From: a virus
Taxonomy: Duplodnaviria; Heunggongvirae; Uroviricota; Caudoviricetes
DNA length: 4,506 nt
Strand: one strand, 5' to 3'
IMG/VR virus record: IMGVR_UViG_2706794692_000008
Shown here: piece after piece, positions 1,540 through 4,506 of the stretch
Layout: every line of letters starts with the position of its first letter
Numbering within the stretch: the stretch's first letter is position 1
The notes under the pieces: generated by a model
The model's database searches: none
Told to the model about the DNA's origin: nothing
What the model saw: only the letters and a program-made list of their open reading frames with translations
Position numbers and translations under genes: made by a program

Positions 1540-1962
1540 ATGGCGAAACCTTTTACTCCCGAACAGCGGGAAGAACTGAAGACGCGAATTGTGGAACTCG
1601 TGCATCAGGACGGTCGGGTCACGATTCGGCAGTTGTCAGATGAAACAGGTATCAGTCGTGCGTCTGTCGGTCGCTTATGCATAGAACTGGTCGCAAGTGG
1701 TGATGTATATAATTCTGGCTACGGCTTATTCCCGTCTGAACAGGCTCGCAAGGACTGGCAAAGCGCCCGCAAAAAACTCTCGAGAGTAAAGGTGAGGAAA
1801 CCGGTTGTTGTTGATCCGGACCTTATCTGGTCATTACCTGACGGAGAAATACGCCGCTACGACAGGCGCCTGAATATAATCTGTCGCGAGTGCCGGAAGA
1901 GCGAAGCTATGCAGCGTGTACTGGCTTTCTATCAGGGTAATTTTCAGGAGGCGATACTGTGA
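1540..1962 (+). CDS. hypothetical protein, N-terminal winged-helix/HTH-like segment
   Basis: 140-aa ORF with AGGAGG (1530-1535) 4 nt before ATG 1540, starting 15 nt after the dnaC-like stop. The segment RVTIRQLSDETGISRASVGRLCIELVASGDV looks like a helix-turn-helix. Family not recognised. Confidence 0.6.
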   Translation: MAKPFTPEQREELKTRIVELVHQDGRVTIRQLSDETGISRASVGRLCIELVASGDVYNSGYGLFPSEQARKDWQSARKKLSRVKVRKPVVVDPDLIWSLPDGEIRRYDRRLNIICRECRKSEAMQRVLAFYQGNFQEAIL

Positions 1963-2019
1963 ATGAAATTAGCTATCAGGCTTCAATTACCGCTGGCATT
2001 CGCATCAAAGGAGAGGAGC

Positions 2020-2376
2020 ATGGAAATAAAACCAGAAGATGAGTTAAGCAATATCGTTTTATTTCCGGTAAAAGAGGATGACCCTCGTAATCAGGTTAAT
2101 TTTCTTTATGAGCCATCGGAAAGACCATATTGCCATCACGCCTCTGTACGGGTTGACGAAAAAGAGCGTCAGGTCCGCTGTAAAATCTGCGGTGCGGTTG
2201 TGGAGCCGTTTGACTGGATGCTCTCTGTGGCAAAAAGAGAAACCAGACTGGCAGATGATGTAAGGCTATTGCGCCAGGAGGAACAGGAAAGGCGGAGAAA
2301 TATAGAAAAGCTGATACAGATTGAGCGTAACGCGAAAGCGCGGATACGCAGGGCGACAAAATCCAGAACTGAATAA
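2020..2376 (+). CDS. hypothetical Cys/His-containing protein with basic coiled-coil-like C-terminus (alternative start ATG 1963)
   Basis: ATG 2020 is preceded by AGGAG (2009-2013) with a 6-nt spacer. The in-frame ATG 1963 directly abuts the TGA (1960-1962) of the upstream gene, with AGGAGG (1946-1951) 11 nt upstream, so a 137-aa form is possible. Contains YCHH...(17 aa)...CKICG, then a Glu/Arg-rich tail (RLLRQEEQERRRNIEKLIQIERNAKARIRR). Confidence 0.5.
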   Translation: MEIKPEDELSNIVLFPVKEDDPRNQVNFLYEPSERPYCHHASVRVDEKERQVRCKICGAVVEPFDWMLSVAKRETRLADDVRLLRQEEQERRRNIEKLIQIERNAKARIRRATKSRTE

Positions 2377-2413
2377 TTAAATTTAGCACTGTTAAAAATT
2401 TAATCCTTAACCG

Positions 2414-2444
2414 GAGGGATTTCTGCACCCTCAAATCATCAGGA
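2414..2444 (+). promoter_or_regulatory. candidate RNA hairpin with possible H-type pseudoknot, upstream of the queH-like gene
   Basis: Stem GAGGG (2414-2418) pairs with CCCUC (2428-2432) around a 9-nt loop AUUUCUGCA. Loop UUCUG (2421-2425) can pair with CAGGA (2440-2444) across an A-rich linker AAAUCAU. The downstream strand overlaps an AGGAG that has no start codon after it. Confidence 0.15.
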
Positions 2445-2523
2445 GACCACCCGAAAGGGCGGGGAGCAGTCACACATCTGTTTCCGATAGCCCCGTTCTA
2501 ATGCTACACTCTTTGATATTTTT

Positions 2524-3210
2524 ATGACCCCAATAAACATATTTATGACAGTTGCTGATTTCAAACGGCCCAAATTGGAGCTCCCAAACGGGGCAAACAA
2601 ACTACTACTGCACTCTTGCTGTGCTCCATGTTCCGGTGAGGTGATGGAGGCGCTTCAGGCCTCGGGAATCGACTACACCATCTTTTTCTACAACCCGAAC
2701 ATTCATCCTCAGAAAGAGTATTTAATTCGTAAGGATGAGAATATTCGCTTTGCTGAACAACACGGCGTGCCGTTTATTGATGCTGATTACGACACAGACA
2801 ACTGGTTTGAACGAGCCAAAGGAATGGAATGGGAGCCCGAACGAGGGATCCGTTGCACCATGTGTTTTGACATGCGTTTTGAGCGGACAGCGCTGTACGC
2901 CGCTGAAAATGGTTTCAGTGTGATCAGCAGTTCACTGGGCATTTCACGCTGGAAAAATATGCAGCAGGTTAACGACTGTGGGCGGCGAGCCGTCGCGCAT
3001 TATCCGGGCATGGTGTACTGGGATTATAACTGGCGCAAGCAGGGCGGCTCGTCCCGTATGATTGAAATCAGCAAGCGCGAAAAATTCTATCAGCAGGAAT
3101 ATTGTGGCTGTGTGTATTCTCTGCGCGATACCAATCTACACCGCAAATCTCAGGGACGCCCTCTTATCAAAATTGGTCAACTCCACTACGGTAAAGAAGA
3201 GAAGGAGTGA
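2524..3210 (+). CDS. queH: QueH-like (DUF208 family) epoxyqueuosine reductase
   Basis: 228-aa ORF with the [11 protein letters not shown] motif (Cys codons 2617-2631), the hallmark I associate with DUF208/QueH, plus further conserved-looking Cys pairs (CTMCFD, YCGCVY). No clear SD before ATG 2524; an in-frame ATG at 2545 is an alternative start. Possible weak promoter TTCCGA (2482-2487), 17 nt, TACACT (2505-2510). Confidence 0.75.
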
Positions 3211-3231
3211 TTTTATGGGGCACCTTTCTGA

Positions 3232-3261
3232 TTGATTTCATATTGGCGAGGTAAGTAGAAT
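3232..3261 (+). promoter_or_regulatory. candidate sigma70 promoter reading into the masked region
   Basis: TTGATT (3232-3237), 18-nt spacer, TAGAAT (3256-3261). Predicted transcription start near 3268, just before the hairpin at 3280-3316. Confidence 0.35.
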
Positions 3262-3355
3262 GACTGCGGGTGCTTGAGGCTATCTGCTTCAGGCATGAAC
3301 ACCAAAAGGCAGATAGAGAAAAGCCCCAGTTAACATTACGCGTCCGGCAAGACGC

Positions 3356-3605
3356 NNNNNNNNNNNNNNNNNNNNNNNNNNNNNNNNNNNNNNNNNNNNN
3401 NNNNNNNNNNNNNNNNNNNNNNNNNNNNNNNNNNNNNNNNNNNNNNNNNNNNNNNNNNNNNNNNNNNNNNNNNNNNNNNNNNNNNNNNNNNNNNNNNNNN
3501 NNNNNNNNNNNNNNNNNNNNNNNNNNNNNNNNNNNNNNNNNNNNNNNNNNNNNNNNNNNNNNNNNNNNNNNNNNNNNNNNNNNNNNNNNNNNNNNNNNNN
3601 NNNNN
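3356..3605. other. run of 250 N (masked or unresolved sequence)
   Basis: Directly visible. Content and true length are unknown; any ORF drawn across it is uninterpretable. Confidence 1.
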
Positions 3606-3629
3606 CATCCTCAACGCACCCGCACTTAA

Positions 3630-3672
3630 CCCGCCCATCGCTGTGATCTCTCAGCGTTTCGGCGGGTTTTTT
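3630..3672 (+). terminator. intrinsic (Rho-independent) terminator
   Basis: CCCGCC (3630-3635) pairs with GGCGGG (3661-3666), with an inner helix CGCUG (3639-3643) / CAGCG (3652-3656), followed by T6 (3667-3672). The reverse complement has no T-run, so it is + oriented. Confidence 0.6.
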
Positions 3673-3692
3673 GTTGTTTATTTCCGGTGAAT

Positions 3693-3720
3693 TTGATTCG
3701 CGCACCTTCGCAGATAGAAT
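3693..3720 (+). promoter_or_regulatory. candidate sigma70 promoter for the 95-aa ORF and DUF1367-like gene
   Basis: TTGATT (3693-3698), 16-nt spacer, TAGAAT (3715-3720), the same hexamers as the promoter candidate at 3232-3261. It lies about 80 nt upstream of ATG 3802. Confidence 0.4.
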
Positions 3721-4127: not shown

Positions 4128-4481
4128 ATGGCACATATACAACTGGTCAAACAAACCTCTTCCGGATTACTTCTCCCGGCGACGCCGGAGAGTTGCGATT
4201 TTCTGCATCAAATCAAAATAGGTGAGTGGATACACGCAGACTTTAAGCGTGTGTGTAACTACGCATTCCACAAGCGTTTTTTCAAACTCCTGCAACTGGG
4301 TTTCGATTACTGGACTCCGGTCGGTGGGGCGATCACGCCTCGCGAACGAAAACTGGTGTCCGGTTTCGTTGATTACCTGTGTGAATCAGTAGGCCGGGAA
4401 CATACGCCAGCTCTGAGCGAAGCCGCAGAGCAATTGAGGTGTACTGGCAATAGCGGACACTACCATTTGTTCTTTTTTTAA
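4128..4481 (+). CDS. DUF1367-like phage nin-region protein (tentative family call)
   Basis: ATG 4128 is preceded by GGAG (4117-4120) with a 7-nt spacer; the track's longer ORF begins at TTG 4086. The N-terminal pattern (HIQLVKQTSSGLLLPATPESCDFLHQIKIGEWIHADFKRVCNYAFHKRFFKLLQLGFDYW) resembles what I recall of DUF1367 proteins in lambdoid nin regions. The stop TAA (4479-4481) follows a T7 run, 25 nt from the window end. Confidence 0.55.
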   Translation: MAHIQLVKQTSSGLLLPATPESCDFLHQIKIGEWIHADFKRVCNYAFHKRFFKLLQLGFDYWTPVGGAITPRERKLVSGFVDYLCESVGREHTPALSEAAEQLRCTGNSGHYHLFFF

Positions 4482-4506
4482 GCAGCCATCTGATGATATT
4501 TTTCCC

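Follow-up and report, generated by a model that had tools for sequence, protein, structure and literature searches.

Completion of queuosine (Q) in tRNA, the reduction of its epoxy precursor (oQ), depends on a cobamide in E. coli and Salmonella, according to the title of Frey et al. (1988). A second kind of reductase, QueH, reportedly works without cobalamin (Zallot et al., 2017); the titles of its PDB entries describe a [4Fe-4S] cluster with an adjacent iron, details of which are reportedly given by Li et al. (2021). The enzyme of E. coli, QueG, is a cobalamin/[4Fe-4S] protein (PMC5175355, PMC4646009), and the oQ-tRNA on which it acts is supplied by an upstream pathway that includes tgt and queA (summarized in PMC9508795 and PMC10570037). 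The QueH family, its reaction and its structure are known already, and RefSeq applies the label to a protein identical to the one considered here (PGAP product name "epoxyqueuosine reductase QueH"). What appears not to have been described is a widespread queH moron of Escherichia lambdoid prophages, apparently of single origin, carrying its own candidate promoter and residing beside QueG: we found no account in the literature of QueH, DUF208, COG1636 or epoxyqueuosine reductase in a phage or prophage.

The gene was met in a stretch of 4,506 nucleotides of viral DNA (the window; IMG/VR record IMGVR_UViG_2706794692_000008, Caudoviricetes), where an uninterrupted open reading frame extends on the + strand from 2524 to 3210. 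Coordinates of this gene, its putative signals and its principal neighbors are collected in Table 1.

Table 1. Features of the queH locus, in positions of the window
Feature	Position	Strand	Remarks
DUF977/Ren-like gene, left neighbor marking the cargo slot	1540..1962	+	PF06163 116.5 bits; phrog_142
Small Zn-ribbon/coiled-coil protein gene	2020..2376	+	phrog_1621 E 5e-56; PGAP CDS in L001
Conserved upstream part of the queH cassette	2474..2544	+	putative promoter region and short A/U-rich leader
Candidate extended -10 element TGcTACACT	2502..2510	+	TG at 2502-2503, hexamer at 2505-2510
Alternative queH start	upstream ATG 2524	+	228-aa reading
queH CDS (most likely start)	2545..3210	+	221 aa and stop; QueH-type epoxyqueuosine reductase (DUF208, PF02677)
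hok/sok type I toxin-antitoxin locus, right neighbor	3232..3700	+	Rfam RF01794 sok 117 bits; hokD annotated in L001
DUF1367 (NinB/Orf-like) nin-region gene, 5' part	4128..4434	+	PF07105 159 bits; phrog_319; cut by IS600

The original prediction recognized the product as QueH, and profile HMM, homology to a solved structure, invariant residues and fold all bear this out. PF02677 (QueH, formerly DUF208) matches it over its full length at 220.6 bits (E 1.9e-65; gathering score 23.5), profile positions 1-174 of 175 aligning with residues 27-201, and T. maritima QueH (PDB 7lc5) matches in sequence at E 5e-22. An HSCCAPC motif occupies residues 30-36 of the 228-aa reading. When the protein was aligned with T. 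maritima QueH and 37 representatives of a library clustered at 50% identity, 14 columns were invariant among these 39 diverse members, and the window protein keeps every one of them: C25, C26, P28, N52, R62, E99 and R103 in the first half (221-aa numbering), C104, C107, K137, Q184, C187, G188 and C189 in the second. Six of these are cysteines, arranged in three motifs (CC-x-P, C-x-x-C and C-G-C).

The same prediction expected metal-binding Cys, His and Asp residues; the six invariant cysteines are in place, and the Asp is not, its position being held by a Cys. This is the position directly after CCAP, Cys29 in the window protein (CCAPC) and Asp13 in T. maritima QueH, and the residue there ligates the extra iron of the enzyme. 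Crystal entries in the PDB for D13N and C9S mutants of T. maritima QueH mark the Asp13 site as one that has been functionally probed. Among full-length representatives at 50% identity the position is Cys in 64/67 and Asp in 3/67, and all 120 close homologues examined have Cys; judged by these alignments, Cys in place of Asp is the majority state of the family rather than a loss. An AlphaFold2 model of the protein (pLDDT 95.6, pTM 0.91) superimposes on 7lc5, 9d86 and 7lc7 in Foldseek with a target-normalized TM of 0.92 and an rmsd of 1.2 A over about 179 columns, the next-best folds being the related PP-loop/[4Fe-4S] tRNA thiolases. With profile, six cysteines, seventh ligand position and fold all as in QueH, which exhausts the family characters that can be computed, the open reading frame very probably encodes a functional QueH enzyme, the activity being a prediction from sequence and model.

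Phage-oriented annotation has mostly missed this identity. A search of NCBIfam release 20 with the product returned no QueH model; in PHROGs v4 the protein belongs to phrog_3217, "unknown function," whose profile starts at residue 41, past the CCAPC motif; and the record of the temperate phage HannyBb (PP925841.1, 33011-33697) lists queH as "hypothetical protein." PHROGs and the HannyBb record share an annotation gap in not recognizing QueH.

The full 2524-3210 extent given in the original prediction needs revision at its 5' end. PGAP begins queH at the second ATG, 2545, and this start is favored over 2524 because the E. coli allele of locus L005 is interrupted by an in-frame stop between 2524 and 2545, the amino acid differences between alleles fall mostly within the seven codons of that stretch, and the alignment of chromosomal homologues from other genera begins only at ATG 2545. 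The gene thus most likely starts at 2545 as judged from these comparisons. No Shine-Dalgarno sequence is recognizable 5' of either ATG.

The elements that carry queH are lambdoid (Rac/Qin-like) prophages. Upstream of the gene, the window contains a ydaU-like replication gene, the C-terminus of which is primosomal/DnaT-like, together with a loader of the DnaC-like kind (510 bits to NCBIfam PRK12377), the DUF977 gene and the Zn-ribbon gene; downstream follow sok/hok, a phrog_340 gene and the DUF1367 gene (NinB/Orf-like per PHROGs). Of the annotated relatives, the nearest (99.5-99.9% identity) is a prophage that E. coli FDAARGOS_944 carries beside ybhA. Its order runs from cI/cro-like regulators through YdaT, a ydaU-like replication protein and ydaV (DnaC-like loader) to DUF977 (Ren-like), the Zn-ribbon protein (phrog_1621), queH, sok/hokD and the phrog_340 gene, and continues with DUF1367, DUF1364, DUF1133, four tRNA genes, and lysis and head genes. 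The phrog_1621 protein (window 1963-2376) has a CxxC...CxxC Zn-ribbon followed by a charged coiled-coil tail and is without functional annotation.

In the window itself the prophage is a remnant. Termini of IS600 (IS3 family) stand at both ends, 1-94 and 4435-4506, in the same orientation, and bracket 4.34 kb of prophage; homology with locus L001 stops at 4434, and IMG/VR loci such as L091 show the same IS600-bracketed arrangement. The ydaU-like replication-initiator gene (95-772) is a pseudogene that has lost its 5' end to the left IS600 and that differs from the intact copy of FDAARGOS_944 by two extra A residues in the A-run at 301-308 and by the loss of 10 bp near 438. The queH gene is intact, its protein 100% identical to the copy in the intact prophage. 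A run of N at 3356-3605 masks the hok toxin part, and with it most, of the hok/sok locus; in the 99.9%-identical locus L001 the sequence in its place is 41 nt longer. IS600 in abundance would be a sign of a Shigella-like or otherwise IS-rich Escherichia genome.

The gene is common. A search of 5426 complete E. coli genomes recovers it, together with a 70-nt leader, from 995 (~18%), nearly always as a single chromosomal copy and mostly at 95-97% DNA identity; 985 of the 995 copies are essentially full-length and bear the PGAP name QueH. Carriers in the sample include ST131, ST95/APEC, EAEC 042 and some O157:H7 genomes, and the gene is also present in the E. albertii reference. One isolated temperate phage, HannyBb, carries it as well, as do at least 189 IMG/VR contigs; among these contigs, the 80 best matches all encode an intact protein of 221 aa.

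Reading 88 loci in full supported the view, put forward originally from the window, that queH is cargo inserted between a replication module (dnaT-like, dnaC-like) and a nin-region gene, and it showed that related prophages use the same slot. The DUF977 gene lies just upstream in 81/88 loci, directly adjacent in most of these and separated by one small ORF in the rest, as in the window; the phrog_1621 gene fills this gap in 13/88 (cluster c18), only in the prophage subtype to which the window belongs. On the other side the contents change. A hok/mok ORF directly follows queH in about 70/88 loci, a Dcm methylase with an NgoMIV-family endonuclease lies downstream in 14/88, and Doc or DUF1971 is found next to queH in individual genomes. 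Replication modules (YdaU/YdaV, O-like and others), immunity regions and nin/Q modules likewise vary among loci. Because the slot is constant while the surrounding modules differ, queH is a fixed resident bordering, on the left, a hotspot of variable cargo and defense genes in mosaic lambdoid prophages; like other accessory genes, it lies between conserved phage modules and occurs in only a subset of related prophages.

Several individual arrangements may be recorded here. The Dcm and NgoMIV-family pair was seen in O157:H7 Z852 (L004, 4922-6932) and in 13 IMG/VR loci. A complete Kiwa system comes right after queH in the ST131-type strain MS14384 (L003, 4946-6585), where PADLOC identifies KwaA at E 1e-101 and KwaB at E 1.5e-159. 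In APEC O1, hok and a Doc toxin lie 3' of the gene (L007, 5538-6023).

Where the gene came from can be approached through its chromosomal relatives. The nearest QueH proteins outside prophages (89-92% identical in amino acids, 78-87% in nucleotides) belong to Scandinavium, Kluyvera ascorbata and Enterobacter species, and in a neighbor-joining tree (no bootstrap) the prophage alleles form one clade, sister to the Enterobacteriaceae chromosomal copies. This topology points to a single capture of queH by prophages. The chromosomal copies nearest to it are neighbored by metabolic genes (SDR, metallo-beta-lactamase fold, DHDPS, GH28, chorismate mutase), with no phage marker proteins around them. 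Across families there is no conserved synteny around non-prophage queH, so the neighbors give no functional clue. Identity to copies from Sphingomonas, Pseudomonas and Stenotrophomonas is still 75-86% in amino acids, and in a set of loci that also covers Rhizobium, Paracoccus and Neisseriaceae it is 75-82%. Such high conservation across Proteobacteria implies either extreme constraint or frequent horizontal transfer, and a few QueH records, filed under odd organisms (Bacillus subtilis, "Avacidaminococcus"), look like contaminants.

These surveys also qualify the statement, made with the original prediction, that enterobacteria normally use QueG. It holds for E. coli, full-length queG being present in 5426 of the 5426 genomes, so that every carrier of the prophage gene has both QueG and QueH. 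Chromosomal queH, however, occurs in many Enterobacterales, among them Kluyvera, Scandinavium, Enterobacter spp., Erwinia, Pantoea, Serratia, Photorhabdus, Providencia and Dickeya.

The captured segment seems to have been more than a coding sequence. Homology among prophages with differing upstream neighbors starts at 2474, and matches in E. coli to the window segment 2400-3355 begin at query position 75, which is the same point. Within the shared leader, the sequence ATGCTACA(C/A)T is equally far from the start codon in 7/7 prophage alleles and takes the same position 5' of chromosomal queH in Scandinavium, Kluyvera, Enterobacter and Symbiopectobacterium; it reads as an extended -10 element (TGnTACACT/TACAAT) and lies about 35 nt upstream of ATG 2545. 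We infer that the TGCTACACT element acts as a promoter of queH, with transcription starting near 2517, and that it could drive expression in lysogens; the gene seems to have brought its native promoter region along. A generic two-hexamer promoter scan did not call this -10 element, and an Rfam E-value scan of the equivalent 2.5 kb of L001 around queH recovered only sok and no riboswitch. Between the Zn-ribbon gene and the queH cassette, at 2445-2466, there is a GC-rich stem with a GAAA tetraloop (CCGCCC-GAAA-GGGCGG in L001, with one mismatch, CCACCC, in the window) and no T-run after it on either strand.

Our preferred reading, to which as a whole we give a probability of about 0.6, is that the prophages carry a functional QueH, captured once, which provides B12-independent Q in the lysogen and benefits the lysogen by doing so. 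An Enterobacteriaceae relative, of the Kluyvera/Scandinavium/Enterobacter lineage, would have supplied the gene and its native promoter from its chromosome, and the pair would have landed in Escherichia lambdoid prophages, in the accessory slot that follows the replication module and the DUF977/Ren-like gene and precedes the nin region. From there, mosaic recombination may have carried the gene between phages that differ in their immunity, replication and nin modules. The product, a cobalamin-independent iron-sulfur/iron enzyme, is predicted to convert oQ34 to Q34 in tRNA-Asp, -Asn, -His and -Tyr. Since QueG needs cobalamin and E. coli has no de novo cobalamin synthesis, prophage queH would be a lysogenic-conversion gene that makes Q completion in the lysogen independent of B12 supply, with the same activity exerted incidentally during lytic growth. 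Both the activity and the advantage of B12 independence are predicted here, and prophage queH can be regarded as a credible back-up for QueG. Since every E. coli has queG and corrinoids are usually available in the gut, little may be gained, or gained only in particular niches; to our knowledge, no phenotype distinguishing oQ from Q has been established in E. coli.

A different beneficiary can be envisioned, namely the lytic phage. In this account queH would be read through from the early-right promoter, raising Q relative to oQ and improving the decoding of NAU and NAC codons in phage late genes. By place and orientation the gene does belong to the early-right operon, and neither side of it has a terminator (no terminator-like sites were seen in 2300-3355); because the promoter scan missed the -10 element and no terminator follows, it may be expressed mainly on the early-right phage transcript. 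Translation of NAU codons is reported to be modulated by Q (PMC10570037), and a Shewanella preprint describes oQ-to-Q conversion responding to phage infection, with queG induced, Q up and oQ down (bioRxiv 10.64898/2026.03.05.709803). NAU usage, however, is 0.57 in HannyBb late genes and 0.50 in L001 head genes against 0.57 in a small E. coli sample, which is no enrichment, and the codon-usage rationale was rejected for that reason. Retention of the native chromosomal promoter motif, and of an intact queH in a dead, IS-bracketed remnant, also argues for a benefit to the lysogen rather than to the lytic phage alone. We consider translation tuning in the lytic cycle an unlikely explanation of the gene's presence.

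Alternatively, queH could be a nearly neutral passenger, picked up by illegitimate recombination and kept chiefly through linkage to hok/sok and the spread of its phages, with no meaningful effect of its own. Its full redundancy with a universal queG would agree with this, as would the adjacency of hok/sok in most loci and an undistinctive base composition (GC 0.493 for queH against 0.492 for the window). Whatever the benefit of the gene, linkage to hok/sok could aid its retention. Neutral carriage does not sit well with the pattern of substitution, however: pairwise Nei-Gojobori comparison of the 7 distinct prophage alleles gives dN/dS of 0.02-0.10 with dS up to 0.45, values that show strong and long-term purifying selection on QueH while it was phage-borne. 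Moreover, none of the 88 fully read loci has a disrupted copy, and the gene persists where the restriction-modification pair or other cargo replaces hok/sok. A passenger without effect is accordingly improbable in our estimation.

Retention of queH for the benefit of the lysogen, as preferred here, could be given a stronger form, in which the gene is selected as a means of host manipulation: uncoupling Q from cobalamin would change lysogen physiology in B12-poor niches, perhaps making loss of BtuB cheaper or altering sensitivity to anticodon nucleases that attack Q-tRNAs. If true, this would explain the fixed place of the gene in a defense and addiction hotspot in roughly one E. coli genome in five; we hold it to be distinctly unlikely.

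More unlikely still is a role in conflict proper, whereby the Q or oQ state of the wobble position would alter susceptibility to an anticodon nuclease or to some defense or counter-defense function, or whereby BtuB could be lost at lower cost. There is a rationale for both. The four Q-tRNAs are exactly those that colicin E5 cuts, next to position 34, and BtuB, the B12 receptor, is also the receptor for BF23 and the E colicins. The slot is itself a hotspot for defense and addiction, with Kiwa, Dcm plus NgoMIV-family endonuclease, Doc and hok/sok directly beside queH. This association is by position only, however; QueH has no match among PADLOC profiles at E <= 0.001, for want of which its identity as a defense protein was rejected, and the 80-92% identity to chromosomal housekeeping QueH gives no sign of neofunctionalization.

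Hardly credible, finally, is the phage deazapurine pathway that the original prediction offered as one of two speculative roles, here taken as 7-deazaguanine DNA modification against restriction: queC/D/E and folE are common in phages for DNA modification (general literature), but neither a DpdA/TGT-type transglycosylase nor preQ0-synthesis genes are annotated in HannyBb (complete, 90 features) or in 25 kb of prophage L001, because of which we find this role unsupported and have rejected it, the known substrate of QueH is oQ already in tRNA, we know of no epoxyqueuosine-type DNA base, and of the two roles the one in tRNA is favored.

Should the prophage enzyme be active, as the preferred reading of B12-independent Q completion in lysogens predicts, about 18% of E. 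coli strains would complete queuosine without vitamin B12, which K-12 cannot do, and the B12 dependence of oQ reduction would become a strain-dependent property of the species. Such strains would allow any physiological difference between oQ and Q to be studied in a clean natural setting, and a tRNA-modification enzyme would join the functions known from lysogenic conversion.

The gene can be compared with several known systems. With T. maritima QueH (7lc5) the prophage protein shares a full-length HMM match, the fold (TM 0.92) and the invariant residues, and it differs in having Cys at the Asp13 ligand position. It is 80-92% identical in amino acids to the chromosomal QueH of Kluyvera, Scandinavium, Enterobacter, Erwinia, Providencia and others, whereas its location is unlike theirs, in a lambdoid cargo slot and beside QueG in every host genome examined. 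With QueG it shares the predicted reaction (oQ34-tRNA to Q34-tRNA) and the cells in which this takes place; unlike QueG, which requires cobalamin (PMC5175355, PMC4646009) and is not homologous to it, it would carry out that reaction with a [4Fe-4S] cluster and an adjacent iron.

Among phage genes, the resemblances are equally partial. Like the lambdoid morons of the ren-to-nin slot (lambda ren, hok/sok, restriction-modification genes, Kiwa), queH occupies a position of swappable cargo and has a candidate promoter of its own, although it shows neither the terminator nor the atypical base composition by which morons are recognized, and its cargo is a tRNA-modification housekeeping enzyme instead of an exclusion, defense or virulence function. 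Like folE, queD, queE, queC and dpdA, it is a Q-pathway gene found in phages; unlike the clusters formed by those genes, which make preQ0-derived DNA bases with the help of a DNA transglycosylase, queH stands by itself as a lone tRNA enzyme from late in the pathway.
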